Shown in pieces: positions 554-34,986 of a stretch of DNA of 35,714 bases (its first letter is position 1; every line of letters starts with the position of its first letter). Where the stretch lies: contig JBAVTL010000503.1 of the NCBI GenBank assembly GCA_049696175.1, forward strand, positions 1-35,714, given 5' to 3'. The stretch is from Anaeromyxobacteraceae bacterium (GTDB lineage Bacteria; Myxococcota; Myxococcia; Myxococcales; Anaeromyxobacteraceae). Under the pieces are notes generated by a model. The model searched no databases, was not told where the DNA came from, and saw only the letters and a program-made list of their open reading frames with translations. The position numbers and the translations under genes were made by a program.

Positions 554-636
554 CCGCCAGCGCCGGGTGGAAAGGCGCGCGGGGCTCGGGGTATCATGCG
601 CGCCCCCCTGCAGGCCGTTGGAGAGGCAAAGCGAAG

Positions 637-2244: not shown

Positions 2245-2732
2245 TGGCACGCAAGGTGATGAACGTCATCCTCGCCGGGCTCGGCGGGCAGGGGGTGATC
2301 AAGGCCTCCAACATCCTCGCCGACGCCGCCTTCCGCGACGGCCGCGACGTCAAGAAGGCGGAGGTCCACGGGATGAGCCAGCGCGGCGGCTCCGTGACGA
2401 CCGACGTCCGCTTCGGCGACGAGGTCCTCTCGCCGATGATCCCGTGGGGCGAGGCCGACTTCATCGTGGTCTGCGCGCCGAGCGAGGTGGAGGTGGTCCG
2501 GCCGCTCCTCCGGCCGGGCGGCCTGCTGATCGCCCCTGACTTCGTCGACGAGGCGAAGCTCGGGAACAAGCGGAGCCTCAACGTGGCCTTGCTCGGCGCC
2601 CTCTCGCACCACCTCGACATCCCCGAGGAGCGCTGGGGCGAGGCGATCAACGCCGGGCTGCCGACGCACCTCCACGACGTGAACGCCCAGGCCTTCCGGC
2701 TCGGCCGGGAGACCGCTGCCGCGCGCAAGTAG
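2244..2732 (+). CDS. iorB: Indolepyruvate ferredoxin oxidoreductase, beta subunit
   Basis: ATG at 2244 overlaps the iorA stop (gtgATGgca). MARKVMNVILAGLGGQGVIKASNILADAAF...VHGMSQRGGSVTTDVRFGDEV is the characteristic IorB/gamma-domain signature. Only the last 163 codons of track ORF 567..2732 are real. Confidence 0.88.
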   Translation: MARKVMNVILAGLGGQGVIKASNILADAAFRDGRDVKKAEVHGMSQRGGSVTTDVRFGDEVLSPMIPWGEADFIVVCAPSEVEVVRPLLRPGGLLIAPDFVDEAKLGNKRSLNVALLGALSHHLDIPEERWGEAINAGLPTHLHDVNAQAFRLGRETAAARK

Positions 2733-2791
2733 CACGCCCACGCCCTGCCGGGCGCCGACCGCGGCCCGGGACGCACACCAAGGAGGAGCCC

Positions 2792-4117
2792 TTGAAGAGC
2801 CAGTGGAACGACGCCCCGGGTGGCTTTCACCCAGCCAGCGCGCCCGACTTCCTGCCGCGCGCCCAGCTCCAGACGCTCCAGCTCGGCCGGCTCCAGGCGA
2901 CGGTCACCCGCGCGTACGAGAAGGTCCCGCTCTTCCGCGAGCGCATGAACGCGCGCAACCTGGGCCCTGGCGACATCAAGGCGCTCCCGGACATCGCGAA
3001 GCTGCCGTTCACGGTCAAGGCAGACCTCCGCGACACCTACCCGTTCGGCCTCTTCGCGAGCCCGATGGAGGAGGTGGTCCGGCTCCACGCCTCCTCCGGC
3101 ACGACGGGCAAGCCCATCGTCGTCGCCTACACCGAGGCCGACCTCCAGGTCTGGACCAGCGTCATGGTCCGCGCCTTCGCCGCGTGCGGGCTCCACAGGG
3201 GCGACGTCCTCCAGAACGCGTACGGCTACGGCCTCTTCACGGGGGGGCTCGGCGCGCACTACGGCGGCGAGGCGCTGGGCGCGACCGTGATCCCGATCTC
3301 CGGCGGCAACACCGAGCGTCAGCTGATGGTCCTGCAGGACTTCGGCGTCACCGCCGTGAGCTGCACGCCCAGCTACTTCATCCACCTCATCGAGAAGGCG
3401 CGCGAGGCGAAGATCGGCTTCGGCAAGCTCAGGGTGGGCGTCTTCGGCGCCGAGCCCTGGAGCGAGGAGATGCGCCAGTACATCCAGGCGGAGTCGGGCA
3501 TCAAGGCGTTCGACATCTACGGCCTCTCCGAGATCACCGGCCCGGGCGTCGGCATCGAGTGCCACCAGCAGCACGGGCCGCACATCTTCGAGGACCACTT
3601 CTACCCGGAGATCGTCGACCCGGCGACGGGCGACCCGCTGCCGGACGGGACGGAGGGCGAGCTCGTGCTCACGACCCTCTCCAAGCAGGCGATGCCGATG
3701 ATCCGCTACCGGACGCGCGACATCTCCTCGATCGACGCGGAGCCCTGCGGCTGCGGCCGGACGCTCCGCCGGATCCGGCGCATCGGCCGGCGCTCCGACG
3801 ACATGTTCATCATCCGCGGCGTCAACGTCTTCCCGTCGCAGGTCGAGACCGCGCTCCTCAAGGTGGAGGGGACGCTGCCGCACTACCAGATCATCCTCAC
3901 CCGCGAGCAGGGGCTCGACACCATGGAGGTGCAGATCGAGGTCACGCCGGAGTTCTTCTCCGACAAGATCAGCGCCCTCGAGAGCCTGCAGCGGAAGCTG
4001 GCGGACGCCGTCGAGCACGTGCTCGGGCTCCGCGTGAAGGTCACGCTCGTCGAGCCGCGCACGCTGGCGCGGAGCGAGGGCAAGGCGAAGCGCGTCGTGG
4101 ACAAGCGGAAGATCTAA
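2792..4117 (+). CDS. paaK: Phenylacetate-CoA ligase family (AMP-forming aryl-acid CoA ligase), paralog 1
   Basis: TTG start at 2792, 5 nt after AAGGAGG (2780-2786). Motifs LPFTVKADLRDTYPFGLFA, SSGTTGKP, YGLSE and DDMFIIRGVNVFPSQVE are present. Confidence 0.9.
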   Translation: MKSQWNDAPGGFHPASAPDFLPRAQLQTLQLGRLQATVTRAYEKVPLFRERMNARNLGPGDIKALPDIAKLPFTVKADLRDTYPFGLFASPMEEVVRLHASSGTTGKPIVVAYTEADLQVWTSVMVRAFAACGLHRGDVLQNAYGYGLFTGGLGAHYGGEALGATVIPISGGNTERQLMVLQDFGVTAVSCTPSYFIHLIEKAREAKIGFGKLRVGVFGAEPWSEEMRQYIQAESGIKAFDIYGLSEITGPGVGIECHQQHGPHIFEDHFYPEIVDPATGDPLPDGTEGELVLTTLSKQAMPMIRYRTRDISSIDAEPCGCGRTLRRIRRIGRRSDDMFIIRGVNVFPSQVETALLKVEGTLPHYQIILTREQGLDTMEVQIEVTPEFFSDKISALESLQRKLADAVEHVLGLRVKVTLVEPRTLARSEGKAKRVVDKRKI

Positions 4118-4132: not shown

Positions 4133-4579
4133 ATGAAGATCCGTCAGCTCTCGCTCTTCCTAGAGAACCGCCCCGGCCAGCTCCGGGTCCCCTTCAAGGT
4201 GCTGGGCGACGCCGGGATCGACGTCCTCACCATGTCGCTCGCCGACACGCAGCAGTTCGGGATCCTGCGGCTCGTGGTCAGGGACTGGGCGCGCGCGAAG
4301 CAGGTGCTGGAGGCCGCCGGCTCGGTCGTCAACGTCACCGACCTCATCTCGCTCGACGTCCCCGACCAGCCGGGCGGCCTCGCCACCGTCCTGGAGGCGT
4401 TCGACCGGCTCGGGCTGAGCATCGAGTACATGTACGCCTTCGCGGCCTCACGTGAGCGCGGCGGCTACGCGACGCTGCTCGTGCGGCTCGAGGACCCCGA
4501 CGCCGCGGGGCCCAGGCTCACCGCCGCAGGCGTGAAGCTCGTCGCGGCGGAGGAGCTCTTCAGGCGGCTCGGGGCATAG
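4133..4579 (+). CDS. ACT-domain (small-molecule-binding regulatory) protein
   Basis: MKIRQLSLFLENRPGQL...GIDVLTMSLADTQQFGILRLVV and a second half SLDVPDQPGGLATVLEAF suggest tandem ACT-like beta-alpha-beta-beta-alpha-beta units. Sits between two paaK paralogs. Confidence 0.8.
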   Translation: MKIRQLSLFLENRPGQLRVPFKVLGDAGIDVLTMSLADTQQFGILRLVVRDWARAKQVLEAAGSVVNVTDLISLDVPDQPGGLATVLEAFDRLGLSIEYMYAFAASRERGGYATLLVRLEDPDAAGPRLTAAGVKLVAAEELFRRLGA

Positions 4580-4586
4580 GAAGAAC

Positions 4587-5906
4587 GTGGCCGACTTCGC
4601 GTACGAAGACCGGATCTGGGATCCGGCGGAGACCCTCTCACGCGCCGAGCTCCGGGTGCTGCAGGGCGCGCGGCTCGCCGACACCCTGCGCCGCGCCGCG
4701 ACGATCCCGTTCTACCGTGACGCGCTCGCGCGCGCCGGCGTGGAGCCGGGGTCGATCCGCTCCCCCGACGACGTGCGCCGCCTCCCCTTCACGGTGAAGG
4801 ACGACCTCCGGGCGAACTACCCGTTCGGCATGCTCGCGGTCCCGCGCGCCGCGCTGGCGCGCGTCCATGGCTCGTCGGGCACGACGGGCAGGCCCACCTT
4901 CGTCGCGTACACGAAGCGCGACCTCGAGACCTGGTCCGGGCTCTGCGCCCGCTTCCTCACCGCCGGCGGCCTGCGCCCGGAGCACCTCGTCCACATCGCC
5001 TTCGGCTACGGCCTCTTCACCGGCGGCTTCGGGCTCCACTACGGCGTCGAGCGGGTCGGCGCGGCCGTGGTCCCGGCGGCCGGCGGGAACACGCCGCGAC
5101 AGGTGCTGCTGATCCGCGACCTCGGCGCCGAGGTCCTGGTCTGCACCCCCTCCTACGCGCTCCACATCGGGGAGGTGGCGCGCGAGCAGGGCTTCGGCCC
5201 CGGCCAGCTCCCGCTGCGCTACGGCCACTTCGGCGGCGAGCCCTGGACGGACGAGCTGAGGCTGGAGATCGAGCGGCAGCTCGGGATCCTGGCGTTCAAC
5301 AACTACGGCCTCTCGGAGGTGATCGGCCCCGGCGTCGCGGGCGAGTGCCCCGCCCGGAGCGGGATGCACGTCCAGGAGGACCACTTCATCGTGGAGTGCG
5401 TGGACCCGGTCACGCTGGAGCCGGTGCGCGACGGCGAGGTGGGCGAGCTCGTCTTCACGTCGCTGACCAAGGAGGCGAACCCGATCCTCCGGTACCGGAC
5501 GCGCGACCTCGCGGCGCTCGACCGGTCCCCCTGCCCGTGCGGCCGCACGGGCGTGCGGATGGGGCGCGTCGTCGGCCGCTCCGACGACATGTTCATCGTC
5601 CGCGGCGTCAACGTCTTCCCCTCCCAGGTCGAGGAGGCGCTGCTCCGCGTCGAGGGGACGGCCCCCCACTACCTCATCGAGATCTCCCGCCCAGGCGCGC
5701 TCGACGAGGTGGCGGTGAGGGTGGAGATCCGGCCCGGCGAGTTCTCAGACGAGATGCGCCACATGATCGCGCTCCACGAACGGATCGACCGTGAGATCCA
5801 CACGGTCACCGGGATCCGGATGCGTGTGGAGCTGGTTGCGCCGGGCTCGCTCGAGCGCTCCCCCGGCAAGGCGAAGCGGGTCGTCGATCACCGCAAGCCC
5901 GCGTAG
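4587..5906 (+). CDS. paaK: Phenylacetate-CoA ligase family, paralog 2
   Basis: GTG start at 4587 after AGGAAG. LPFTVKDDLRANYPFGMLA, SSGTTGRP, YGLSE and DDMFIVRGVNVFPSQVE. Colinear with paralog 1 over its full length. Confidence 0.9.
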   Translation: MADFAYEDRIWDPAETLSRAELRVLQGARLADTLRRAATIPFYRDALARAGVEPGSIRSPDDVRRLPFTVKDDLRANYPFGMLAVPRAALARVHGSSGTTGRPTFVAYTKRDLETWSGLCARFLTAGGLRPEHLVHIAFGYGLFTGGFGLHYGVERVGAAVVPAAGGNTPRQVLLIRDLGAEVLVCTPSYALHIGEVAREQGFGPGQLPLRYGHFGGEPWTDELRLEIERQLGILAFNNYGLSEVIGPGVAGECPARSGMHVQEDHFIVECVDPVTLEPVRDGEVGELVFTSLTKEANPILRYRTRDLAALDRSPCPCGRTGVRMGRVVGRSDDMFIVRGVNVFPSQVEEALLRVEGTAPHYLIEISRPGALDEVAVRVEIRPGEFSDEMRHMIALHERIDREIHTVTGIRMRVELVAPGSLERSPGKAKRVVDHRKPA

Positions 5907-6788: not shown

Positions 6789-7898
6789 TCAGAGCACCGC
6801 GTTGAACAACCAGCCCACCGCCAGGATCCCGCTCGCCACCACGCCGACGAAGGTCGCGATGAGCTTCGGCTTGAGCACCTTGCGCAGGATGATCATCTCC
6901 GGAAGGGAGAGGGCGATGACCGCCATCATGAAGGCGAGCACCGTCCCGAGCGCCGCCCCCTTGCCGAGCAGCGCCTCGACCACGGGGATGATCCCGGCGG
7001 CGTTCGAGTACATCGGGACTCCGATGAGGACCGCGACCGGCACCGACCACCAGGCGGACTTGCCCATGAAGCTGACGAGCAGCCCCTCGGGCACGTAGCC
7101 GTGGATGCCGGCCCCGACGGCGATCCCCCCGAGCACCCACGGCCAGACCTTGCCGACGATCTCGCGGACCGCCTCGAGCCCCTTCCGCACGCGGCCGGTG
7201 AAGCCGAGCCGCTCCTTCTCGTAGCCCGCGCTGGCGTTCATCGACTCGTAGACCCACGGCTCGACCCAGCGCTCCAGCTTCAGCCGGCCGAGGACGAACC
7301 CCGACACGATGGCGATCGCGAGCCCCGTGGACAGATAGAGCGCCGCGACCTTCCAGCCGAAGAGGCCGAAGAGGAGGACGAGCGCGACCTCGTTCACCAT
7401 CGGGGCGGAGATGAGGAAGGAGAGCGTCACGCCGAGCGGGATCCCCACCTCGACGAAGCCGATGAAGAGCGGCACCGCCGAGCAGGAGCAGAAGGGGGTC
7501 ACGATCCCCAGGAGCGCCGCCAGCACGTTTCCGACCGACTCCCGCTTCCCGGCGAGGATGGCGCGCGTCCGCTCCGGCGTGAAGAAGGACCGCGCGATCC
7601 CGACGAGGAAGACGATGAGCGTCAGGAGCAGCAGCACCTTCGGCGTGTCGTAGAGGAAGAACGCGACGCTCTCGCCGAGGTGCGAGCCGGGCGTGAGGCC
7701 GAGAGCCCGGAAGCTGAGCCACTCGGACAGCGGCTTCACGGCTGCGTAGGCAGCGGCCCAGGCGCCAAGGCCGAGCGCGAGGAGGACGGCCGTCACAGGC
7801 GCGCGGGACTCCGGCGGGGGCCCTGGCTTCGGGTTCGTGTACGGGTTGGCGCAGCACTGCGGCTGCTGGGTGGGCTGCTCGATCACCTTGAGGCTCAT
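6789..7898 (-). CDS. DUF318/ArsP-type permease (putative organoarsenical or metalloid efflux permease)
   Basis: Polytopic membrane protein with the TPFCSCSAVPLF motif and Cys-rich N-terminal tail (QCCANPY). Paired with the small CxxC protein and lies next to ars genes. Confidence 0.78.
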   Translation of the reverse strand: MSLKVIEQPTQQPQCCANPYTNPKPGPPPESRAPVTAVLLALGLGAWAAAYAAVKPLSEWLSFRALGLTPGSHLGESVAFFLYDTPKVLLLLTLIVFLVGIARSFFTPERTRAILAGKRESVGNVLAALLGIVTPFCSCSAVPLFIGFVEVGIPLGVTLSFLISAPMVNEVALVLLFGLFGWKVAALYLSTGLAIAIVSGFVLGRLKLERWVEPWVYESMNASAGYEKERLGFTGRVRKGLEAVREIVGKVWPWVLGGIAVGAGIHGYVPEGLLVSFMGKSAWWSVPVAVLIGVPMYSNAAGIIPVVEALLGKGAALGTVLAFMMAVIALSLPEMIILRKVLKPKLIATFVGVVASGILAVGWLFNAVL

Positions 7899-7908
7899 CG
7901 GCTCGCTC

Positions 7909-8610
7909 TCAGATCACGGTGTGGACGAAGTAGAGGCCGCCCGCGATGACAGCGAGTCCGGCGATCACGCGCAGCGCGGAGACCGCGCGGGCGCCGCCCC
8001 TCCAGGCCAGCCAGCGCTGGACGTTCTGCGCGGAGGCGCCAGCAGCCACGATGGCCAGCGAGTGGCCGAGGCCGTACAGCGAGACCAGGAGCACGCCGTA
8101 GAGGGCGCGCTCCGCCCCGGCCCGGAAGGCGAGCCCGAGGAGCGGCGCCATGAAGGCGAAGGTGCAGGGCCCTAGCGCGGCGCCGAAGAGGAGACCCAGC
8201 AGCAGCGCCCCGACCGCGCCCCGCTGGCGCGGCGAGCCGCCGGGCGCGGACCAGCTCGGCAACTGGAGGACGCCGACCAGGTTGAGCCCCACCGCGATGA
8301 AGACCGCGGCGAGCGCCCAGGTCCCCCCGCGCCCCACGTCGCCCACCATGCGCCCCGCGGCCGCGGTCGCGGCGCCGACGGCGGCGATGGAGCCGAGGAT
8401 TCCGAGCGCGAAGGCCCCTGAGAGCACCACCGCCCTTCGCCCGGTCGGCAGCTCGTCGCCGCCGCTCATGTACGCGACGACGAGCGGGATGCTCGAGAGG
8501 TGGCAAGGGCTCAAGACGACCGACAGGACTCCCCACGCGAACGCCGCCGGGAGGGCGAGCGCAGCGGAGGCCTCGAAGGCCCGGCCGAAGGCGGTCAGGA
8601 GCTCGACCAT
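7909..8610 (-). CDS. ccdA: CcdA/DsbD-family transmembrane thiol-disulfide electron transporter
   Basis: Likely start MVELLTAFG at 8610 (ATG, preceded by GAAAGG, 8 nt after the upstream gene's stop). SVVLSPCHLSSIP and LGPCTFAFMAP are the two conserved Cys-containing TM motifs. Confidence 0.85.
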   Translation of the reverse strand: MVELLTAFGRAFEASAALALPAAFAWGVLSVVLSPCHLSSIPLVVAYMSGGDELPTGRRAVVLSGAFALGILGSIAAVGAATAAAGRMVGDVGRGGTWALAAVFIAVGLNLVGVLQLPSWSAPGGSPRQRGAVGALLLGLLFGAALGPCTFAFMAPLLGLAFRAGAERALYGVLLVSLYGLGHSLAIVAAGASAQNVQRWLAWRGGARAVSALRVIAGLAVIAGGLYFVHTVI

Positions 8611-16665: not shown

Positions 16666-19542
16666 TCAGCCGCCGCTGCTGGATAGAGGAGGCGAGCTCG
16701 TCGCGAACGCAGCGCGAACCTCCGACATCCACGCCGCGATCGGCGGAGCCGACGCGCCCATGGCCTCGAAGAGCGCGGGGAGCCCCATCAGGTCGCCGAC
16801 CGGGACCCACTCCCCCTTGACCTCGACCTCGAGCGCCGGGCAGAGGGCGTAGGCGCCGCGCCGCACCCGCTGGAAGAGACGCCGGCCGTACGGATTCGTC
16901 GAGGCGATCTCGTTCTTGCCGAGGAGGGAGGACAGGTACTCCCGCCGGCGTCGGTAGTCGGCGAGGGTGCCGCGCGGGAGGCCGGCGACCAGCCGCGCCA
17001 GGCCGGGGGCATCGACCACCGGGACCCCACCCTGGCGGACGGCGCCATCCATCATGCGCCGGAGCTGCACGAGGCAGAGCTGCACGAGGAACCACTCGCC
17101 GGTGGTCGGGTCGAGCTTGACCATCCGGTCGCCGAGCTTCACCTTGAGTGGCGCGGTGGCCAGCTGCTCCCACACCCGCTGGAAGGCGGCCGCCTTGACG
17201 CCGCGCTGCTCGAGCCAGGCCGCCAACGCCACCCGCAGGGCGGTGCGGCCGGCCGTGTCGACGGCTTCGCCGTCGGCGCCCAGGGCCAGCAGCTCGGTCG
17301 CCAGCTCGTCCTGGCCGAGCCGAGCCGCCACCATGAGCGGGGTCTCGTTGAGCGGGTTGCGGAAGTCCAGGCCGTGCGCGCGGAGCTGGTCCTGGAGGCG
17401 CGGGGAGCGCCGCTGCTGGTACTCGGCGTAGTACGTGGCTTCGATGTAGGCGCGCCCAGACTCGGCCTTCCGCGCGTGGCGGAACCCGGCGGCCACCAGC
17501 CGCGGCAGCAGCGACGCGGCGTCGTACGTGACGGCGAACTCGAAGAGGAGTTGCTGGGCCGCCTTGTCGGTCGGCCCCGGGCCGAGCGCCCGGTCCCGGA
17601 GCCCGGCCAGCGCGGCCCCGTCGGCCACGGCCCACGGGACCGGTCGGACCTCGAGGATGTCGCGCCGGATCCGCTCGGCCTGCTCGGCCTTCCCCTGCAG
17701 CTCGAGCCGCCTCGCCTCGCGCTGCCACTCCTCGCGCGACGACTCCTCGGCGGGCAGCTCCACGGCGTCCCCAGCCTCGCCGACGGCCAGGAGCGCGAGG
17801 AGCGGGTGGCCGGGGTCGGCCTCGATCACCACCAGCGACTTCACCGCCCTAGTCATGGCGACGTAGAGGGCGTTCACGTAGAACTTGTAGGCGTCGAGGC
17901 TCTTGTCCGCCTTGTCGCGCGCCCGGGCGTACTCCAGCTCGCCATCCAGCTCGGACGGCGCGACGCCGGCGGCGCACTCCCTGAACTCCCTGGCCGCGCC
18001 GCTCACCAGGTTGAAGAGCACCACGTTCTCGTACTCCAGCCCCTTGGCCTCCTGGACCGAGAAGAGGAGCGGCGTGGAGAAGGCCGCCCGGGCCGCCGCC
18101 TTGTCCTCGTCGCGGAGCACCACCACCGCCGTCCGCGCCGAGCGCCGGGTCCGGGCGTCGAGCTCCGCGCGCACGGCCGGACCGTCGGCCAGCAGCTCGA
18201 CCCGTCCCTCCTCGCCGCTGACGCACTCGACCAGGTAGTTGCTCTCCCGGTCCACCGAGCCGAAGCGCCGCTGCTTGACGAGCAGCAGCCGGTTGGCGAG
18301 CGCCGTCACCGCCCGGGTGTTCCGGTAGTTGGCGGACAGGACGTGGATCCTGTCGAGTGGCGTCGGGTCGCCGCGGCGGCCGCCGTCACCGTGGAAGAGC
18401 CCCTTCACCCGGGCCCAGGAGAAGAGGTTGGGGTGCACGATCTGGTTGGAGTCGCCGCAGAGCAGGAAGGCGTGCTTGTCCCTCAGGGTGGCCAGCGCCA
18501 GCCGGAGCTCGACCGGTGTGACGTCCTGCACCTCGTCGATCACGAGGAAGTCGTAGCGCTCGGGCGCCAGGCTCCGCCGCTCCCACGCGGCCACGTTGGC
18601 GTCGAAGAGGGCGTGCTCGCGCAGGTGGGCGAGCCACCTCTCGAAGACCCGGTAGACCACCCGGCGCTCCTCGCCGAGGAAGATCGACTGCCGGACGCCC
18701 AGCGCGAGGTACTCCTCCTCGCCGAGGTGCGGCCCCTCCTCGGCCGAGCCCGTGAGGACCCCGGTCACCTCCTCGAAGATCCGGTGCGGCTCCCGCAGCT
18801 TGAAGGTGCCCTGGTGCCGGCCGTACCAGGCCGCGAAGTCCGACCAGCGCGCCTCTCGCCCCGACGGCACCTTGACGGTCTCGACGAGCTCCGCCAGCGA
18901 GAGGAAGTCCACCTCCTGCCCTTCGTTGGCGTAGCGATGGGCGTAGTAGAGCGACCGCGCGTTCTCGACCAGGAACGAAGACCGGGTGAGGTAGAGCCCG
19001 TGGCCAGCCAGCGTCTTGAGCTTCTCCAGGGTGAGGGCGGTCTTGCCCGAGCCGGCCGAGCCGATGACGATGAGGGGCAGCGGCGTGCTGAAGACGGCCG
19101 CCTGGGCGTCGTCGAACGAGAGCGGCTTGTCCAGGACGTGCAGCACCGTCGAGGCCGGGTTGAGGTAGGCCATCCGCTCGGCCTCGACCCCCTTCCAGCC
19201 CCCCTCGGGCGAGCGGTCCGGGGTCGGCGCTGCCTGCACCGGCTCGAAGTCCGCCTCGGTCGCCTCGCCGCCGCCGAGGAATCGGGATCGCGCGTAGTCG
19301 TGGTTGTGCACCACCTCGAGGACCAGCAGCACCCGTCGCCCGCCGTGCTCGCCGAACTTGAAGAGGAGCCGGTTCCGTTCGTCGAGCCTGGCGCGGTAGA
19401 GCGCCGTCCCCTTCAGCTTCCTGGCGTCGGCGGCGCGGAAGTCGCCCGCGCGGAGCTGCTGGATGGCGAGCTCGACCTGGCGGCCGAGCTGGCGGACCTC
19501 CAGATCGCGGTACACGAGGACGTCGATGGGCTGGTCGAACAC
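16666..19542 (-). CDS. 958-aa multidomain protein: RelE/ParE-like N-domain + UvrD-like SF1 helicase core + ankyrin-containing C-terminal region
   Basis: GTG start at 19542, the first start after an in-frame TAG. Residues 45-85 read GTALYRARLDERNRLLFKFGEHGGRRVLLVLEVVHNHDY (RelE/ParE-type pattern). Helicase motifs: GSAGSGKT (nt 19039-19062), FLVIDEVQD (18523-18537 covers DEVQD), GDSNQIV, NYRNTRAV, SVQEAKGLEYENVVLF, LYVAMTRAVKSL. ANK-like NETPLMVAARLGQDELATELLALGADGEAVDTAGRTALRVA lies at about nt 17218-17355. Confidence 0.85.
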   Translation of the reverse strand: MFDQPIDVLVYRDLEVRQLGRQVELAIQQLRAGDFRAADARKLKGTALYRARLDERNRLLFKFGEHGGRRVLLVLEVVHNHDYARSRFLGGGEATEADFEPVQAAPTPDRSPEGGWKGVEAERMAYLNPASTVLHVLDKPLSFDDAQAAVFSTPLPLIVIGSAGSGKTALTLEKLKTLAGHGLYLTRSSFLVENARSLYYAHRYANEGQEVDFLSLAELVETVKVPSGREARWSDFAAWYGRHQGTFKLREPHRIFEEVTGVLTGSAEEGPHLGEEEYLALGVRQSIFLGEERRVVYRVFERWLAHLREHALFDANVAAWERRSLAPERYDFLVIDEVQDVTPVELRLALATLRDKHAFLLCGDSNQIVHPNLFSWARVKGLFHGDGGRRGDPTPLDRIHVLSANYRNTRAVTALANRLLLVKQRRFGSVDRESNYLVECVSGEEGRVELLADGPAVRAELDARTRRSARTAVVVLRDEDKAAARAAFSTPLLFSVQEAKGLEYENVVLFNLVSGAAREFRECAAGVAPSELDGELEYARARDKADKSLDAYKFYVNALYVAMTRAVKSLVVIEADPGHPLLALLAVGEAGDAVELPAEESSREEWQREARRLELQGKAEQAERIRRDILEVRPVPWAVADGAALAGLRDRALGPGPTDKAAQQLLFEFAVTYDAASLLPRLVAAGFRHARKAESGRAYIEATYYAEYQQRRSPRLQDQLRAHGLDFRNPLNETPLMVAARLGQDELATELLALGADGEAVDTAGRTALRVALAAWLEQRGVKAAAFQRVWEQLATAPLKVKLGDRMVKLDPTTGEWFLVQLCLVQLRRMMDGAVRQGGVPVVDAPGLARLVAGLPRGTLADYRRRREYLSSLLGKNEIASTNPYGRRLFQRVRRGAYALCPALEVEVKGEWVPVGDLMGLPALFEAMGASAPPIAAWMSEVRAAFATSSPPLSSSGG

Positions 19543-22573: not shown

Positions 22574-22592
22574 AGGTAGCACGGCGCTACCT
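22574..22592. promoter_or_regulatory. Inverted repeat immediately upstream of the ParD-like antitoxin gene (candidate autoregulatory operator)
   Basis: aggtagc-acggc-gctacct: perfect 7-bp arms with a 5-nt spacer, ending 8 nt before the ATG at 22601. Confidence 0.35.
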
Positions 22593-22600
22593 TTGGCTTC

Positions 22601-22981
22601 ATGGGTCAGCCCGTGAAGCTCTCCGATCACCTGATGCTCGAAGCACGCCGCGTCGCCGAAGAGTCGCAGCGCTCCCTCGCCGGCCAGATCGAGCACTGGG
22701 CACGGCTCGGCCGCGCCATCGACACAGTCATGCGCCCGGTGACGGCGCTCAAGCTCAAGCGCCGCGCGCCGGCGCCGGCGCCGGCCATCTCCGCACGCCT
22801 CGAGGACATCGACACGCCCGCAGGGCGCGCCCGCGTCGCGGCCGGGCTCACGTCGGAGCCCTTCCCGCACTTCGAGGTCGCTCCCGGTCGACCGGGGCTC
22901 CTCGTGAGGATCGACGAGGATGGCAGGCACACCATCGGCCGGTTCGTGAAGCGTAAGTTCGTTCCGGTGAAGGCGCAGTAG
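22601..22981 (+). CDS. ParD-like type II antitoxin (family that partners zeta/P-loop kinase toxins)
   Basis: MGQPVKLSDHLMLEARRVAEESQRSLAGQIEHWARLGRAIDTV matches my recollection of the ParD_like N-terminal RHH-type region. Located 21 nt upstream of a zeta-like P-loop gene. Confidence 0.68.
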   Translation: MGQPVKLSDHLMLEARRVAEESQRSLAGQIEHWARLGRAIDTVMRPVTALKLKRRAPAPAPAISARLEDIDTPAGRARVAAGLTSEPFPHFEVAPGRPGLLVRIDEDGRHTIGRFVKRKFVPVKAQ

Positions 22982-23002
22982 CTGTCCCCACGTCCACCCG
23001 CC

Positions 23003-23602
23003 GTGGCCTCGCTCACCGGGAAGCCGCCCATCGATCGGCAACCGCTCCTGATCGCCGTCGCGGGGCCGAATGGGGCCGGCAAGACCACCTTCTGCCGTTA
23101 CCACCTGGCGGATCTCCGGCTCCGCTACGTCAACGCGGATCTGCTCGCCGGTGAGCTCGCCCTGGGCCCGCACGAGGCGGCGGAGCTCACCACCACCCTC
23201 CGCGAAAGCCTGGTGCGCGAGCGCGAGAGCTTCGTCTTCGAGACCGTCTTCTCGGACCCCGCAGGCGACAAGCTCGGCTTCTTCGTCGACGCCGCCGCGC
23301 AGGGATACACGGTCGTGCTCTGCTTCGTCGGCCTGGAGGACGCCGCCCTCTCCGAGGCCCGCGTCGCGATGCGGGTCCTCAAGGGAGGTCACGACGTCCC
23401 GACCCGGAAGATCAGGGAGCGCTTCCCGCGCACGCTCGCCAACCTGCGCCGGGCCATCCGTGCGCTTCCCCACGTCCTGGTCTTCGACAACAGCGACCTC
23501 TCCCGCCCCTTTCGCGCGGTCGCCACGTTCAAGGACGGGGCGCTCGTCGAGGCCAGGACTCCCGTACCTTCCTGGGCGAGGAGGCTCGTCAAGCTGACTT
23601 AG
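23003..23602 (+). CDS. Zeta-toxin-like P-loop kinase (type II toxin candidate)
   Basis: GTG start at 23003. IAVAGPNGAGKTTF Walker A, FVFETVFSD, VVLCFVGLEDAALSEARVAMRVLKGGHDVP. About 200 aa, typical of short zeta/AAA_33-like toxins. Confidence 0.72.
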   Translation: MASLTGKPPIDRQPLLIAVAGPNGAGKTTFCRYHLADLRLRYVNADLLAGELALGPHEAAELTTTLRESLVRERESFVFETVFSDPAGDKLGFFVDAAAQGYTVVLCFVGLEDAALSEARVAMRVLKGGHDVPTRKIRERFPRTLANLRRAIRALPHVLVFDNSDLSRPFRAVATFKDGALVEARTPVPSWARRLVKLT

Positions 23603-31111: not shown

Positions 31112-31486
31112 GTGATGCGTCCCAGGCTTCGGTCCGTTTCGCCCGACCAGGCGGCCGTCCTGACCAAGGCTACCCGGCGTGCCGCCGAGCATCTCGGCCT
31201 CTCCGACGCGGCGCTCGCCGACGTCCTGGGAGTGAGCCCGTCGTCGGTCTCCAGGCTCGGTGACTCGCGGAACATCGACCCCGCCAGCCGCGAGGGCGAG
31301 TGCGCGCTCCTCCTGCTCAGGATCTTCCGTGGCCTCGACTCGTTGCTCGGCGACGTCGGGAGCTGCAAGAAGTGGATGGCAGCCAACAACAACCACCTGC
31401 GCGGCGTGCCGGCGGAGCTCGTCCGGTCCGTCGAGGGGCTCGTGAATGTCACCCGGTATCTGGATGCGATGCGGGGGAAGCTCTAG
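31112..31486 (+). CDS. Xre-like/DUF2384 antitoxin (ParS/MbcA family)
   Basis: N-terminal HTH-like LGLSDAALADVLGVSPSSVSRL. C-terminal RIFRGLDSLLGDVGSCKKWMAANNNHLRGVPAELVRSVEGLVNVTRYLDAM is the RES-toxin-binding DUF2384 pattern. Start is GTG 31112 or ATG 31115. Confidence 0.8.
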   Translation: MMRPRLRSVSPDQAAVLTKATRRAAEHLGLSDAALADVLGVSPSSVSRLGDSRNIDPASREGECALLLLRIFRGLDSLLGDVGSCKKWMAANNNHLRGVPAELVRSVEGLVNVTRYLDAMRGKL

Positions 31487-32210
31487 CCTCCGCAGCATCG
31501 AGAGCAAGCCGTGGCGGGTGGTGGAGTCCCAGCAGCGGATCTCCACGCGCGTCCTCGTCGACTCCGACGCCGAGCATGAGCTCCTCGAGGCCCTCATCGA
31601 GGAGAGCAAGCCGCCGGTCCCCGACGAGGCGGAAGACCTCGACTTCCTGCTCTTCTCTCCCTTCCGCTACCCGCCACTGGAGCACGGATCGCGCTTCGGG
31701 CGGCCTGACGAGCCGTCGCTCTGGTACGGGTCCGAGTCGGTCGAGACGGCCCTCGCCGAGATGGCCTACTACCGGCTCGTCTTCTTCGAGGGGACAGCGG
31801 CCGACCTCCTCCCCAACCAGCTCCGTATGTCCGCGTTCAGGGCGGGCGTCGCCTCGAAGTCGGCGGTGGACCTCACCGCGCCCCCCTTCGACCGATTCCG
31901 GGACGCGATCACCTCCAGGACCGACTACGGCGAGCCCCAGCAGCTCGGTTCCGACATGAGGGCCGACGGCGTCGAGCTCTTCCGCTTCCCGTCGGCGCGC
32001 GCCCCGAAGCAGGGCCTGAACGTGGCGCTCTTCACGCCCAAGGCATTCGTCCTCAAGGAGCCGCTCGAGCCTTCGACCACCTGGACCTGCACCGTGACGG
32101 CCCGGCGCGACGTCTCCTGGTTGCGCGAGGGAGCAGGAAGCCATGAGCGGTTCGAGTTCCCGCGCGCCATCTTCCTCGTGGACGGGAAGCTCCCTGGGCC
32201 CGCGCTGTAG
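31464..32210 (+). CDS. RES-domain toxin (NAD+-targeting ParT/MbcT family)
   Basis: Overlaps the antitoxin 3' end (ATG 31464, alternative 31446). WRVVESQQRISTRVLVDSDAEHELLEALIEESKP. R-E-S signature: GSRFG, ALAEMAYY, FRFPSARAPKQGLNVALF. Confidence 0.85.
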   Translation: MRCGGSSSLRSIESKPWRVVESQQRISTRVLVDSDAEHELLEALIEESKPPVPDEAEDLDFLLFSPFRYPPLEHGSRFGRPDEPSLWYGSESVETALAEMAYYRLVFFEGTAADLLPNQLRMSAFRAGVASKSAVDLTAPPFDRFRDAITSRTDYGEPQQLGSDMRADGVELFRFPSARAPKQGLNVALFTPKAFVLKEPLEPSTTWTCTVTARRDVSWLREGAGSHERFEFPRAIFLVDGKLPGPAL

Positions 32211-32252
32211 AAGCCGAACTTCGAACACCAGGGCGGTTATGATGCGCCGCCC

Positions 32253-34964
32253 TTGGCCACCCACTTCACACTCACCCTCACCCCCGCCGGCCACGTCCTT
32301 CCCCGTCCGGCCGCCCCGGACGAGCCGGGGCCGGCGCCGGCCGTCGCCCTGAGGATCCAGGCGGCCTTCGAGCGCGGGCACGGGGCGGGGCTCCTCCACC
32401 TGGGCGCCGCCGAGGCGCGGACGGCGCTTCCGCCCGTCTTCAACTTCTGGCGCGACCTTGGTCGCGCCTTCATCGCAGCGCTCTGCGCCCTCCCCGACCT
32501 CGAGGAGCGGCGCGAGCGCGCCGACCCCGTGCCGCGCGACGGGGCGCTGGAGCGGCTCGCCTCCTCGGCGCCGCTCCTGCCGGGCGGCGAGTACCTCTCG
32601 CCCGAAGTCCTCCACGCGCTCTGGCGCGACCTCCTCGCCGCCTGGCGCGCCGAGCTCACGTCGGCTCGCGGCACCGTCCAGGACTGGCTCGCAGCGAAGG
32701 ACCCGGCCTGGAGCGTCGTCGGGCGCGTCCACCTCCACCTCGCCGAGAACAAGCGCGATCTCGAACGGCCCTTCGCCTTCCTCGCCAGCTACACGACCGG
32801 CCTCACCGCGAGCGGCAAGCCACAGCACCGGCCGCTCGGGGAGGCCGTTCGCGAGGCCTCCTCGGCCGCCGACCGTCGGCGCCTCCTGGCGCTCCTGCAG
32901 CCGGTCCAGCGCGCCTCGGAGCGCAGCCCGCTCGTGAAGGCGCTGGCCGACTCCGGCAGGCTCTTCCAACCGCAGGCCTGGACGCCCTCCGAGGCCCACC
33001 GCTTCCTTCGCGAGGTCCCCTCGCTGGAGGAGAGCGGTGTCGTCGTTCGTGTGCCCGACTGGTGGAGCAGCCGCCATCCGCCCCGCCCGCGCGTGACGGT
33101 CTCGGTGGGGGAGCGGAAGCCCGCGGCGCTGGGGCTCGACGCGATCCTCGACTTCTCTGTGCGGCTCACGCTCGGAGAGGAGGAGGTGACCGAGGCGGAG
33201 CTTCGCAAGCTTCGCGAGCACACCGACGGGCTGGTCCTCCTGAAGGGGCGCTGGGTCGAGGTGGACCGCGAGCGGCTGGACGAGCTGCTCCGCCGCTGGA
33301 AGGCCGCGCAGCGGAGCGCCGGCGAGGGGCTCTCGTTCATCGAAGCGATGCGGCTCGTCGCGGGGGCGGACCTCGCGAGCGGGACGGCAGCGGCGGAGGT
33401 TGACCGCGAATGGGAAGGCGTGCGGCCGGGCGCGTGGCTCGCCGAGACGCTCGCCGAGCTTCGCGGAGCCGGAGGCGCGGGGCTGGACGCGCAGGCGGAC
33501 CCCGGCGACGCGCTTCACGCGGACCTCCGCCCCTACCAGCGCGACGGCGTCCGCTGGCTCTGGTTCCTCTCGCGCCTCGGCCTCGGCGGCTGCCTCGCCG
33601 ACGACATGGGGCTCGGCAAGACGGTGCAGGTCCTGGCGCTCCTGCTCCTCCTGAAGCGCCACAGGACGGTCCCCGGGCCCCACCTCCTCGTCGTCCCCGC
33701 CTCGCTCCTCGCCAACTGGAAGGCGGAGGCCGAGCGGTTCGCGCCCTCGCTGAAGATGCTCGTCGCCCACCCGTCGGCGACGCCGCGGGACGAGCTGGCT
33801 GCGCTCGGGCCGGAGTCGCTCGCCGGTCTGGACGTGGTGGTCGTGACGTACGGTGGCGTCCATCGCCTCCCATGGCTCGCCTCCACTCGCTTCGGGCTCG
33901 TCGTCCTCGACGAGGCGCAGGCGATCAAGAACCCCGGCGCGCGCCAGACGCGGGCGGTGAAGGCGCTCGGCTCGCGGCTGCGGCTCGCCCTCACAGGCAC
34001 CCCCGTCGAGAACCGGGCCGGCGACCTCTGGTCGCTCTTCGACTTCGTGAACCCGGGGCTGCTCGGCTCGCCGAAGGAGTTCGGGACGTTCCTGAAGCGC
34101 GCCGAGGGCGACGCGCCCTACGCGGCACTTCGCGAGCTGGTCCGGCCCTACATCCTGCGCCGGCTCAAGACCGACCGCACCGTGATCGCCGACCTGCCGG
34201 ACAAGACGGAGGTGAAGGCCTGGTGCGCCCTCACGAAGCGGCAGGCGGCGCTCTACCAGGAGTCGGTCGAGTCACTGACCCGCGAGCTGCAGTCGCTCGC
34301 GCCAGCCGACCGGATGCGCAGGCGTGGCCTCGTCCTCTCATACCTCCTGCGGCTCAAGCAGATCTGCAATCACCCCTCGCAGTGGCTCGGCGACGGCGGG
34401 TGGGCCCCTGAAGAGAGCGGCAAGCTCGCGCGCCTCGCCGAGCTCGCCGAGGTGGTGGCGTCGCGCCAGGAGAAGGCGCTCGTCTTCACGCAGTTCCGCG
34501 AGGTGACCGCGCCGCTCGCTCGCTTCCTCGCGGACGCGTTCGGCAGGCCCGGGCTCGTCCTCACCGGCGAGACGAAGGTCCGCGAGCGCGCGGAGCTGGT
34601 ACGCCGCTTCCAGGAGGACGAGGCGCTCCCCTTCTTCGTGCTCTCGCTCAAGGCCGGCGGCACGGGGCTCAACCTCACCGCCGCGACGCACGTCATCCAC
34701 TTCGATCGGTGGTGGAACCCCGCGGTCGAGAACCAGGCGACCGACCGCGCCTTCCGCATCGGCCAGAAGAAGGGGGTCCTCGTGCACAAGCTCGTCTGCC
34801 GGGGGACGGTCGAGGAGCGGATCGACGCGATGCTGGAGTCGAAGCAGGCCCTCTCGCGCGAGCTGCTCGAGGGGGGCGACGAGCTGAAGCTGACTGAGCT
34901 GGACGACCGCGCACTCTTGAAGATGGTCTCGCTGGACCTGAGGGGCGCGAGCGCGGAGCGCTGA
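32253..34964 (+). CDS. SNF2-family helicase/ATPase with long bacterial SNF2-associated N-terminal region
   Basis: LRPYQRDGVRWLWFL…LADDMGLGKTVQ (motif I), VVLDEAQAIKN (II), LALTGTPVENR (III), FTQF…LSLKAGGTGLNLT…HFDRWWNPAVENQATDRAFRIGQ (IV-VI). The only nearby start is TTG at 32253, with no obvious SD. Confidence 0.92.
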   Translation: MATHFTLTLTPAGHVLPRPAAPDEPGPAPAVALRIQAAFERGHGAGLLHLGAAEARTALPPVFNFWRDLGRAFIAALCALPDLEERRERADPVPRDGALERLASSAPLLPGGEYLSPEVLHALWRDLLAAWRAELTSARGTVQDWLAAKDPAWSVVGRVHLHLAENKRDLERPFAFLASYTTGLTASGKPQHRPLGEAVREASSAADRRRLLALLQPVQRASERSPLVKALADSGRLFQPQAWTPSEAHRFLREVPSLEESGVVVRVPDWWSSRHPPRPRVTVSVGERKPAALGLDAILDFSVRLTLGEEEVTEAELRKLREHTDGLVLLKGRWVEVDRERLDELLRRWKAAQRSAGEGLSFIEAMRLVAGADLASGTAAAEVDREWEGVRPGAWLAETLAELRGAGGAGLDAQADPGDALHADLRPYQRDGVRWLWFLSRLGLGGCLADDMGLGKTVQVLALLLLLKRHRTVPGPHLLVVPASLLANWKAEAERFAPSLKMLVAHPSATPRDELAALGPESLAGLDVVVVTYGGVHRLPWLASTRFGLVVLDEAQAIKNPGARQTRAVKALGSRLRLALTGTPVENRAGDLWSLFDFVNPGLLGSPKEFGTFLKRAEGDAPYAALRELVRPYILRRLKTDRTVIADLPDKTEVKAWCALTKRQAALYQESVESLTRELQSLAPADRMRRRGLVLSYLLRLKQICNHPSQWLGDGGWAPEESGKLARLAELAEVVASRQEKALVFTQFREVTAPLARFLADAFGRPGLVLTGETKVRERAELVRRFQEDEALPFFVLSLKAGGTGLNLTAATHVIHFDRWWNPAVENQATDRAFRIGQKKGVLVHKLVCRGTVEERIDAMLESKQALSRELLEGGDELKLTELDDRALLKMVSLDLRGASAER

Positions 34965-34986
34965 CGCGCGGGACTGGAGACGGAAC

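Follow-up and report, generated by a model that had tools for sequence, protein, structure and literature searches.

A mobile bacterial gene for a protein with a RelE/YoeB-type fold, UvrD-like helicase, ankyrin solenoid and conserved C-terminal domain

Introduction

What is the role of a bacterial protein in which a toxin-like domain is covalently tethered to a nucleic-acid motor and which lacks a neighbouring antitoxin gene? This question is raised by an open reading frame in a 35,714-nucleotide stretch of Anaeromyxobacteraceae DNA (the window), for which an original prediction, made from the sequence, had proposed a fusion of a RelE/ParE-like domain, a compact SF1 helicase and an ankyrin-containing tail. 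In line with that prediction, no characterised protein of this architecture was found in PADLOC, NCBIfam and literature searches, and literature searches likewise revealed no experimental work on any family member. PADLOC has no model for the family, and the copies in Shigella, E. coli ST131 and Methylosinus go no further in their annotation than 'hypothetical', 'AAA family ATPase' or 'ankyrin repeat protein'.

Results

Gene and overall architecture

The open reading frame represents a real gene with the predicted span and is located on the minus strand, which had been left unstated (Table 1). Its codon-position GC of 0.75/0.46/0.96 is typical of a real gene in a genome of 71% GC, the position of the start codon is common to the homologues, and full-length homologues share 44–90% identity with the protein. 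All motifs quoted in the prediction could be located in the 958-aa protein, and their core residues are invariant in an alignment of 30 diverse homologues. The protein is composed of a RelE/YoeB-type fold, a UvrD-like helicase, an ankyrin solenoid and a C-terminal domain.

Table 1. Features of the 958-aa protein and their positions in the window.
Feature	Residues	Position	Strand	Basis or remark
Complete CDS, 958 aa		16666..19542	minus	GTG start at 19542; stop codon 16666-16668
N-terminal RelE/YoeB-like (BECR-fold) domain	1-90	19273..19542	minus	AF2 model, Foldseek, alignment
YRARLDERNRLLFKFGEHGGRRVLLVLEVVHNHDY	49-83			within the N-terminal domain
Pro/Gly/acidic linker	91-125	19168..19272	minus	poorly conserved, length varies (gapped stretch in the conservation profile)
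Divergent UvrD/PcrA-like SF1A helicase core, motifs I-VI intact	126-590	17773..19167	minus	Pfam, profile
GSAGSGKT, Walker A, K167	161-168	19039..19062	minus	invariant in homologue alignment
DEVQD	336-340			helicase core
GDSNQ	363-367			helicase core
YRNT	406-409 (motif IV 405-409)			helicase core
QEAKGLE, motif V	497-503			helicase core
YVAMTRA	560-566			helicase core
Charged helical hairpin (EEWQREARRLELQGKxEQAExIRRxIL)	600-632	17647..17745	minus	highly conserved; two helices in AF2 model
Ankyrin-type helical-repeat solenoid, ~150 aa	~640-795	17158..17625	minus	AF2 pLDDT ~90
C-terminal alpha/beta domain, ~155 aa	~796-950	16693..17157	minus	conserved; AF2 model, alignment

The N-terminal domain

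The AlphaFold (AF2) model of residues 1–100 (pLDDT 89, pTM 0.81) displays the RelE-type α/β fold, in which one or more N-terminal helices pack on an antiparallel sheet. The elements follow in the order β1, α1, β2 (YRARL), β3 (NRLLFKF) and β4 (VLLVLEVV), and the last strand leads into NHDY. [quoted passage not shown] Topmost among the matches were YoeB (6n90), RelK (3oei) and YoeB (7v6w; TMq 0.61, TMt 0.68), and YafQ, HigB, ParE2 and the RelE domain of ribosome-bound Cami1 (PDB 8phj) followed. The best structural matches are mRNA-cleaving members of the superfamily (YoeB, RelK, YafQ and HigB), with ParE2 ranked lower.

At the sequence level, homology to RelE and YoeB is weak and lacks statistical support. 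A profile of the domain found no match among PDB sequences, hhalign against YoeB and RelE gave non-significant values (P 0.016–0.16), and the only recurrent Pfam match, ParE_like (PF24732), was seen in 13 of 31 members and below cut-off (14.7 bits against 24.4; best E 0.0018 among the 31). Within the family, F35, A38, K42, R50, A51, R58, L59, L60, F61, L75, E76, H81, Y83, R87 and L89 are invariant in the domain. Across phyla, K42, R50, K/R52, R58, E76, H81, Y83 and R87 vary little or not at all, and the putative active-site residues are also retained in the copy of E. coli and Shigella.

With the catalytic residues of YoeB (E46/R65/H83/Y84) and RelE (K52/K54/R61/R81/Y87) as reference set, the invariant residues D/E39, K42, R50, K/R52, R58, H81, Y83 and R87 line up with catalytic residues only in non-significant alignments. 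There R58 is placed on YoeB R65 and RelE R61, and R50 and R52 on RelE K52 and K54, while the last strand ends with H81 and Y83, comparable to H83 and Y84 of YoeB. Because the sequence homology is non-significant, the correspondence rests on short alignments; as far as these weak alignments go, basic and His/Tyr residues at candidate YoeB/RelE active-site positions appear to be conserved across phyla. The domain family was found only in the helicase-ankyrin fusion architecture.

The helicase core

The SF1 core was confirmed by Pfam models above their cut-offs, namely Viral_helicase1 (5e-10; 40 bits, cut-off 21), AAA_19 (33.8 bits, cut-off 25.1), UvrD_C_2 (31.1 bits, cut-off 27.4) and UvrD-helicase (30.7 bits, cut-off 23). 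In a profile comparison with the PDB, UvrD (4c2t, 1.4e-5) scored best, followed by PcrA, Rep and AddA, and these comparisons place the motor, as a very divergent member, among the UvrD/PcrA-like SF1A helicases. A weak match to SLFN-g3_helicase stayed below the cut-off (18.5 bits against 24). The residues of motifs I–VI are invariant across homologues, indicating that the ATPase is under selection.

The core had been described as free of large 1B and 2B insertions, which proved right for 2B only. The distance between motifs IV and V amounts to only ~90 aa, so that the 2B domain, ~170 aa in UvrD, appears to be essentially absent. However, Walker A and Walker B are separated by 169 aa, and thus an insert of 1B size is retained. 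Both statements rely on motif spacing and on the UvrD numbering.

Hairpin, ankyrin solenoid and C-terminal domain

The charged hairpin that follows the core carries the invariant residues W606, E609, A610, L613, Q616, G617, E620, Q621, A622, I625 and R626. Behind it, ankyrin repeats are present as proposed: phmmer detected DARPins down to 2.4e-16, and Foldseek matched the region to ankyrin and DARPin structures only (probability ~1). Instead of one clear repeat plus part of a second, however, the models reveal a solenoid, in which repeats can be recognised by sequence only at residues 723–773. Pfam Ank_2 stays below cut-off for the window protein (22.6 against 27.3) and is recorded for many homologues.

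The last ~180 residues, in which no feature had been recognised, contain a conserved and confidently modelled α/β domain consisting of a β-hairpin, a long helix, short helices, a four-stranded meander and two helices, with R864, Y869, N877, R892, Y898 and P902 invariant. It matched nothing in Pfam or among PDB sequences and appears to be novel in this respect; the Foldseek output for the region was swamped by ankyrin matches. One subfamily of homologues carries a C-terminal extension with DUF1186 and SEC-C, and at one locus (L008) a separate gene encoding UPF0149 and SEC-C abuts the homologue.

Gene neighbourhood and distribution

A comparison of 89 loci revealed no conserved neighbouring gene, and no family recurs among the 130 nearest neighbours, which argues, as predicted, against an adjacent antitoxin gene; within the 958-aa protein, the Pfam search revealed no antitoxin-type domain either. 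Upstream of the window gene lies a lipoprotein-like ORF of 171 aa, and the neighbours there are metabolic or housekeeping genes (ABC-2 permease, lipoprotein, RsgA, PhnA). Flanking repeats or IS elements were not found around the window gene. The prediction had raised the question of defence islands. The window gene does not lie in one, the nearest neighbours across species are mostly metabolic, and defence or toxin-antitoxin (TA) genes account for less than 10% of them (rough count). In some lineages the gene adjoins AspS-GatA-GatB or FolD-LptF-TyrS. As the context varies between loci, the picture also differs from that of a housekeeping helicase with conserved synteny.

The whole architecture, including the three parts originally predicted, is conserved at 40–48% identity in at least 587 species from many phyla. 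These represent ~0.3% of 185,579 species representatives, with a patchy distribution, and the family comprises at least 358 sequence clusters. Most carriers are free-living environmental bacteria, such as Anaeromyxobacter, methanotrophs, Nitrospirota, Thiothrix, Nitrosomonas and Saprospiraceae. Copies from Anaeromyxobacter that are 81–88% identical to the window protein sit in differing contexts, one of them next to AbiEi/AbiEii, and cultured Anaeromyxobacter species are missing among the homologue matches.

Homologues were found on 132 plasmids, among them the Shigella virulence plasmid pINV and a plasmid of Methylosinus trichosporium OB3b, and also in Piscirickettsia plasmids and Endozoicomonas. 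In pINV the gene lies among the virulence genes virK, ospG and ipaH and is flanked by IS remnants. In E. coli, 115 of 5426 complete genomes (2%) contain a homologue, e.g. ST131 strain EC958. The four chromosomal copies that were examined all belong to integrative islands of CP4-like type, where antirestriction genes, IS elements, cdiBA and TA genes are their neighbours. Some homologues are pseudogenes, and a search of 50,697 phage records found no homologue. Patchy spread and carriage on plasmids and islands characterise the gene as accessory and horizontally mobile.

Discussion

Our preferred reading is that the protein, carried by mobile elements, constitutes a one-polypeptide conflict system with an RNase effector gated by a motor, which would serve defence, abortive infection or the competition of mobile elements with one another; we hold this reading tentatively, at a little short of an even chance. 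In its favour we count the toxin-type fold, the conserved residues at candidate active-site positions, the invariant motor motifs, the lack of a partner gene, the accessory and mobile character of the gene and the precedents of Cami1, CnuH and type II Gabija, whereas the metabolic surroundings in the window and in most species, the high conservation between phyla and the negative search of phage records count against it. For this protein we infer RNase activity, ribosome dependence, autoinhibition, a trigger and a biological role as follows. Until triggered, the RelE-like domain would be kept silent within its own polypeptide, which would make an antitoxin gene unnecessary. Recognition of a nucleic-acid structure or a protein derived from an invader may fall jointly to the ATP-driven motor and to the ankyrin and C-terminal modules, and would lead to release or positioning of the RelE-like domain. 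Translation would stop as this domain cuts RNA, the likeliest substrate being mRNA in the ribosomal A-site, as for YoeB and RelE. UvrD-like motors normally work on DNA, and the coupling of such a motor to a ribosome-dependent RNase is for this reason speculative. The sensor-effector or anti-phage function suggested in the original prediction is likewise something that we infer. In its boldest form, the reading describes a so far unrecognised single-gene immune or abortive-infection system, which the Shigella virulence plasmid and islands of E. coli ST131 would already carry and in which a UvrD-like motor, with its ankyrin and C-terminal sensor, releases an antitoxin-less, ribosome-targeting RNase of the RelE/YoeB type on detecting foreign nucleic acid or a phage protein; this version is possible but somewhat more doubtful.

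The RelE/ParE-type fold could also serve a purpose other than RNA cleavage. As a ParE-like or purely binding module it might dock onto a partner such as gyrase, the ribosome, RNA polymerase or nucleic acid, in which case the protein would act as a specialised DNA helicase or translocase of mobile elements, for example in plasmid or island maintenance, anti-plasmid interference or the resolution of replication conflicts. The recurrence of ParE_like as the only Pfam match of the N-terminal domain is consistent with this, as are the closest solved helicases, which are all DNA enzymes (UvrD, PcrA, Rep and AddA), and the carriage on plasmids and islands. ParE-type members of the superfamily inhibit gyrase and do not cleave RNA (Gerdes 2025, PMC11980606), and the RelE-like domain of the CoCoNuT helicase CnuH shows no recognisable catalytic conservation (PMC11090510). 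However, Arg/Lys, His and Tyr are fixed across phyla at candidate positions of YoeB and RelE catalysis, which is less readily expected of a surface that serves docking alone, and the mRNA-cleaving toxins outrank ParE2 among the structural matches. We regard a docking module as unlikely.

An RNase could in turn work for the cell instead of against invaders, for instance in a translation quality-control factor for stalled-ribosome rescue, in which the RelE-like domain cuts mRNA in the empty A-site while the motor strips or remodels; such a protein would be an accessory housekeeping factor and not an immune one. An identity of 40–48% over 950 aa across phyla is indeed unusually conservative for an arms-race protein, and the mostly metabolic or housekeeping neighbours, such as AspS-GatA-GatB and FolD-LptF-TyrS, point in the same direction. 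So do the SEC-C motifs attached or adjacent to some homologues, together with DUF1186 or UPF0149, as the SEC-C motif of SecA is reported to contact ribosomes, and the sub-threshold similarity to Schlafen group-3 helicases. However, a factor of this kind should occur throughout a lineage and in conserved synteny, whereas the gene has been detected in only ~0.3% of the species representatives and, within E. coli, in 2% of the genomes, is missing from the matches in cultured Anaeromyxobacter and changes context even between copies of 81–88% identity. Plasmid and island carriage and occasional pseudogenes speak against it as well, which makes a quality-control role rather improbable, slightly more so than docking. 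Finally, ankyrin repeats are typical of bacterial effectors, and a protein secreted against eukaryotic host cells might be considered in view of the Shigella copy amid virK, ospG and ipaH, the copies in Piscirickettsia plasmids and Endozoicomonas, and weak NCBIfam matches to Legionella Ank effectors. These matches are confined to the ankyrin repeat and lie far below the cut-offs, however, most carriers are free-living, and the flanking IS remnants suggest that the Shigella copy is hitch-hiking cargo; secretion into host cells is thus very improbable.

If the conflict-system reading is correct, control by a covalently attached nucleic-acid motor would represent a new way of keeping a RelE-type toxin in check, distinct from the antitoxins of TA modules and the cyclic-nucleotide sensor of Cami1, and DNA or RNA sensing would be coupled directly to translation arrest inside one protein, in a large family that spans phyla. 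Since Shigella pINV, E. coli ST131 EC958 and the M. trichosporium OB3b plasmid provide natural copies in hosts that are tractable and of medical relevance, the family is directly testable. Even if the N-terminal domain proves non-catalytic, the reuse of a RelE/ParE fold as a helicase accessory module and the C-terminal domain would be worth describing.

Comparison with known systems

The N-terminal domain shares its fold with the mRNA interferases YoeB, RelE, RelK, YafQ and HigB, and its basic residues on β2 and β3 and the His…Tyr pair that closes the last strand fall, in the weak alignments, at candidate catalytic positions of YoeB and RelE. Significant sequence similarity to these toxins is lacking, no antitoxin gene is present and a motor and sensor polypeptide of 870 aa is covalently attached to the domain; the model shows only one N-terminal helix, whereas YoeB has two. 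A type II TA module is not represented, as neither an adjacent antitoxin gene nor a fused antitoxin domain in Pfam was found. The helicase resembles UvrD, PcrA and Rep in its motifs I–VI (including GDxxQ, NYRxT, AKGLE and TRA) and in its best profile matches to solved structures, but differs by an E-value of only ~1e-5, a 2B domain missing by motif spacing, foreign termini and an accessory instead of a core gene. Schlafen group III proteins (SLFN11/13-like) combine an N-terminal RNase with a C-terminal SF1 helicase and target translation; the resemblance is purely architectural, as their RNase folds are unrelated to the RelE-like domain.

Cami1, an ancillary protein of type III CRISPR, likewise contains a RelE-fold effector fused to a sensor without antitoxin. 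Cami1 senses cA4 through a CARF domain and depends on type III CRISPR, whereas an SF1A helicase and ankyrin and C-terminal domains are the partners here. Membership in the CARF-RelE type was rejected, since Pfam revealed no CARF domain in the window protein and a CRISPR context is not conserved across loci.

The only described combination of a RelE-like domain with an SF1 helicase found in literature searches is CnuH of CoCoNuT, a predicted RNA-targeting defence system, in types II and III-A of which a RelE/colicin D-like 'RNase toxin-like' (RTL) domain precedes the helicase (PMC11090510). CnuH is described as UPF1-like and as containing, in addition, an SmpB-like OB fold and a coiled-coil insert; its gene lies in conserved operons with the HEPN nuclease CnuE, McrBC homologues and TerY-P. 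The window protein, however, is UvrD/PcrA-like, opens directly with the RelE-like domain and carries ankyrin and novel C-terminal domains, and its family has no conserved neighbours; with UvrD and PcrA as nearest helicases and no recurrent HEPN or McrBC neighbours, it was not assigned to CnuH.

In type II Gabija, the UvrD-family helicase GajB is partnered with a nuclease effector, the MazF-like RNase GajC, which has an mRNA-interferase fold (PMC13069673). The PADLOC models of GajB gave the best matches to the helicase core, partial and weak ones (E 1e-6 to 1e-11). However, Gabija consists of two genes, whereas here a RelE toxin fold takes the place of MazF or TOPRIM and forms one polypeptide with the helicase. 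Gabija membership was discarded, as GajB matched only fragments of the core and neither GajA (OLD-family ATPase/TOPRIM) nor GajC lies nearby. The helicases of Nhi, Hachiman (HamB), AbiO and the DRT reverse transcriptase-associated systems were dismissed as well, PADLOC matching only 40–100 residues around motifs II–III or V–VI (E 1e-3 to 1e-9).

The logic of a toxin-fold domain tethered to a nucleic-acid motor, put forward in the original prediction, is thus less unprecedented than implied, since fusions of a RelE fold to a sensor or to an SF1 helicase have already been described in Cami1 and CoCoNuT CnuH. No paper describing the architecture itself was found, and its closest precedents are Cami1, CoCoNuT CnuH and type II Gabija.

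Domain organization of the 958-residue protein

The open reading frame for a 958-residue protein, which the original prediction had located at nucleotides 16666–19542, is indeed present; it lies on the minus strand, a point that had not been specified, and starts with GTG. At a GC content of the window of roughly 71%, the values by codon position (0.75/0.46/0.96) are the signature of a genuine gene, and all helicase and other motifs quoted in the prediction were found in the translation. The Pfam families Viral_helicase1, AAA_19, UvrD_C_2 and UvrD-helicase each score above their own cut-off, defining an SF1 helicase core. In addition, a weak ankyrin signal covers residues 723–773, and residues 1–130 and 776–958 are without Pfam match. 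Matches to PADLOC and NCBIfam are partial, weak and limited to helicase-core or ankyrin segments.

In an alignment of the first ~100 residues of 31 diverse homologues, F35, A38, K42, R50, A51, R58, L59, L60, F61, L75, E76, H81, Y83, R87 and L89 are invariant. A profile of these 31 sequences retrieved nothing relevant from all PDB sequences, Pfam returned sub-threshold ParE_like (PF24732) alone, in 13 of the 31, and hhalign comparison with E. coli YoeB (query sequence identical to PDB 2a6q_E), RelE and a four-sequence YoeB profile was not significant. The AlphaFold model of the domain (pLDDT 89, pTM 0.81) displays the order β1, α1, β2, β3, β4. [quoted passage not shown] The RelE/ParE-type fold originally proposed for the N-terminus is supported by this predicted structure. 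Since the PDB profile and hhalign searches gave nothing significant, the assignment rests on the fold, and homology to RelE/YoeB is not established at the sequence level by PDB profile, Pfam or hhalign.

The non-significant hhalign alignments agree with each other, matching YRAKLddkNRLLF to WSRRIteeHRLVY of YoeB and YKIKLrssgYRLVY of RelE. R58 is thereby placed on YoeB R65 and RelE R61, and R50 and K/R52 on RelE K52 and K54. The last strand is closed by H81 and Y83, like H83 and Y84 in YoeB. Judged from these residues, a putative active site of the YoeB/RelE type is plausible. Among 1.84 billion representatives, at least 358 clusters match the N-domain profile at E ≤ 1e-10. Many matching proteins are short; because those inspected are pieces of the same long architecture, cut short at contig ends or by frameshifts, no stand-alone version of the domain was found in this search.

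When the helicase core was compared as a profile with the PDB, UvrD, PcrA, Rep and AddA emerged as the nearest solved relatives. As the best of these reach an E-value of only ~1e-5, the core is a very divergent SF1A enzyme. Walker A and Walker B are 169 residues apart, whereas only ~90 residues separate motif IV from motif V, a spacing which implies that an insertion of 1B size is probably kept and 2B lost. DarH, a UvrD-like helicase recently reported from a defence system, is likewise devoid of 2B (PMC13069673); both enzymes are UvrD-like and both would lack 2B, in the present protein as indicated by the motif spacing.

The model of residues 596–958 (pLDDT 89, pTM 0.88) comprises a helical hairpin, a solenoid and an α/β domain. 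The Foldseek output for this region is dominated by ankyrin matches, none of which points to the fold of the C-terminal domain, and Pfam and PDB profile searches with this domain gave no match. By eye only, the hairpin (EEWQREARRLELQGKxEQAExIRRxIL) resembles a UVR-type helical hairpin, and RRLFxRVxRGxYxLNP (window 16780–16960, minus strand) recalls the wing in winged-helix domains of the AbiEi type; neither was detected by Pfam in the protein.

Features of the protein, of the surrounding window and of two homologous loci
Feature	Position	Strand	Basis or remarks
Linker, variable, Pro/Gly/acidic	aa 91–125		Conservation profile
Helicase core	aa 126–590		All motifs invariant
Charged helical hairpin, conserved	aa 600–632; window 17647–17745	-	Model of aa 596–958
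Helical-repeat solenoid	After hairpin, up to ~aa 795		Foldseek: ankyrin/DARPin structures only
α/β domain	~aa 796–950		Model of aa 596–958
Two paralogous AMP-binding ligase genes, small ORF between	2540–4117, 4536–5906	+	AMP-binding + AMP-binding_C_2
Lipoprotein-like ORF, 171 aa	19619–20134	-	Signal …LLAAAC…, GC3 0.92, no Pfam match
ParD-like antitoxin ORF	22580–22981	+	Pfam ParD_like 1.7e-12
Zeta-toxin family ORF	22982–23602	+	Zeta_toxin 7e-13; immediately after ParD-like ORF
Large SNF2-family helicase with DUF3670 domain	32211–34964	+	SNF2-rel_dom 2.9e-61
Intact homologue, Shigella dysenteriae pSLG231	L090 7875–10799		~41% identity
Intact homologue, E. coli ST131 EC958	L092 15049–17898		~41% identity

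Distribution and genomic context

The full architecture is kept at 44–90% identity in the 120 best database matches. A scan with one genome per species identified carriers in at least 587 species, usually one listed per genus and typically with 40–48% identity to the window protein; these include Myxococcota, Acidobacteriota, Bacteroidota, Planctomycetota, Verrucomicrobiota, Lentisphaerota, Desulfobacterota, Nitrospirota, Chloroflexota and several proteobacterial classes. No homologue was found in 50,697 phage records. Members of a ~1400-residue subfamily (P0078, P0079, P0083, P0093, P0095 and others) possess an additional C-terminal DUF1186 (PF06685) and a SEC-C motif (PF02810). The SEC-C association is recurrent, being fused in this subfamily and encoded separately at locus L008, where a UPF0149 + SEC-C gene (7321–7986) stops 14 nt ahead of the homologue.

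Homologues are present on 132 plasmids, including 101 Shigella virulence plasmids, on which the gene is situated between IS remnants and adjoins shf-capU-virK-msbB2; further plasmid carriers include Methylosinus trichosporium OB3b, Piscirickettsia, Deinococcus, Thermus and Polymorphobacter. Among complete E. coli genomes, 115 of 5426 encode a homologue, mostly on the chromosome. For ST131 EC958 and a further three strains, its location is a CP4-like integrative island, where it directly follows an inovirus-Gp2/YfjJ-like gene; AlpA, an antirestriction gene, RadC, IS elements, cdiBA and YacAB are close by. One copy is a pseudogene. The EC958 homologue has the accession WP_000686652 and that of Shigella pINV AHA69123. 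All invariant N-domain residues are kept in the E. coli/Shigella protein, and the Shigella and ST131 homologues are annotated merely as ankyrin, UvrD-domain or hypothetical proteins. The E. coli chromosomal copies are preceded, 36–94 nt upstream and on the same strand, by a gene for ~180 residues (L093/L094 9401/9402–9964/9965; L092 14422–14955), annotated 'inovirus-type Gp2 / UCP030791 phage-derived' or, in EC958, 'hypothetical'. This gene, absent in other phyla, could belong to the backbone of the island or be a partner confined to this lineage.

All-against-all clustering of the flanking ORFs of 89 loci revealed no family common to more than 4–5 loci, family scans of the 130 nearest neighbours none recurring in more than 3, and neither approach found a conserved partner or antitoxin gene. 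The 130 neighbours are mainly metabolic genes, with a few AbiEi/AbiEii, Fic, PtuB and PDC candidates, and Anaeromyxobacter copies with 81–88% identity to the window protein have differing neighbourhoods. Directly upstream of the closest GTDB homologue (88% identity; Anaeromyxobacter MAG, locus L010) lies an AbiEi antitoxin gene (4767–5654, PADLOC 8.5e-91); AbiEii, too, turned up when the nearest neighbours at the various loci were scanned. At locus L004 (4122–7706), a homologue of the DUF1186/SEC-C subfamily has a BrnT/BrnA pair and a gene for a reverse transcriptase (RVT_1) beside it, surroundings that resemble a defence island.

In the window, an ABC-2 permease gene is convergent with the gene for the 958-residue protein, and the lipoprotein-like gene, itself preceded by rsgA, is located 76 bp upstream on the same strand. 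Neither meaningful repeats, IS elements, tRNAs or Rfam matches nor recognisable promoter-like or terminator-like sites were detected around the gene. About 3 kb away, the ParD-like and zeta-toxin ORFs (22580–23602) form an apparent toxin–antitoxin pair. The SNF2-family helicase gene is part of an apparent same-strand gene string with flanking ORFs at 31112–32210 and 34942–35712.

Possible function

The occurrence across phyla is patchy and the context variable, copies are carried by plasmids and islands, and a partner gene is lacking. All of this speaks against a housekeeping helicase, a role that the patchy, mobile distribution contradicts, and in favour of accessory cargo engaged in genetic conflict. 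If no antitoxin restrains it, a RelE-fold domain that retains residues of active-site type can only be inactive or kept in check by the polypeptide itself. One alternative reading is a non-catalytic N-domain, ParE-like or serving as an adaptor, within a helicase of mobile elements. This explanation shares the mobile pattern, has the conserved putative active-site residues to account for, and is considered rather doubtful. That the protein serves as an accessory factor in translation or in RNA quality control appears unlikely. An ankyrin effector aimed at eukaryotes, suggested by the solenoid, is highly improbable, since the carriers are mostly free-living.

Control within the polypeptide is the basis of the interpretation favoured here, which is put forward tentatively: the protein may act as sensor, motor and effector in one. 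It would recognise foreign nucleic acid or protein in an ATP-dependent manner, recognition would unleash the putative RNase, and the RNase would in turn stop translation. Favouring this sensor–motor–effector reading are the accessory and mobile pattern, the antitoxin-less RelE fold and the precedents of Cami1, CnuH and type II Gabija.

Comparison with known systems

Queried with the window protein and with the homologues from E. coli and Methylosinus, PADLOC-DB 2.0 yielded no match to a known defence system beyond partial ones to the helicase core. None of the NCBI names is informative ('hypothetical', 'AAA family ATPase', 'UvrD-helicase domain-containing', 'ankyrin repeat domain-containing'). 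A literature search by accession and keyword found no published account of the family, which is also absent from the text and supplements of the Gerdes 2025 survey of multidomain RelE/ParE toxins (PMC11980606). The architecture, the family and its stand-alone organisation have not been described previously in the literature and databases searched.

The principle itself, in which an effector with a toxin fold is joined covalently to a sensor or helicase or works as its partner, is already known. In Cami1, a RelE domain is under the control of a fused CARF sensor, and the resemblance lies in the fusion of a RelE domain to its controlling module in one polypeptide. In CnuH of the CoCoNuT systems, the UPF1-like helicase is preceded by a RelE-like domain (PMC11090510); the N-terminal position of this domain is shared, whereas the helicase is UPF1-like in CnuH, as described, and UvrD/PcrA-like here. 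In type II Gabija a MazF-like RNase is coupled to a UvrD-type helicase (PMC13069673), so that both combine a helicase of this type with a toxin-type domain, which is MazF-like in Gabija and of the RelE fold in the present family.
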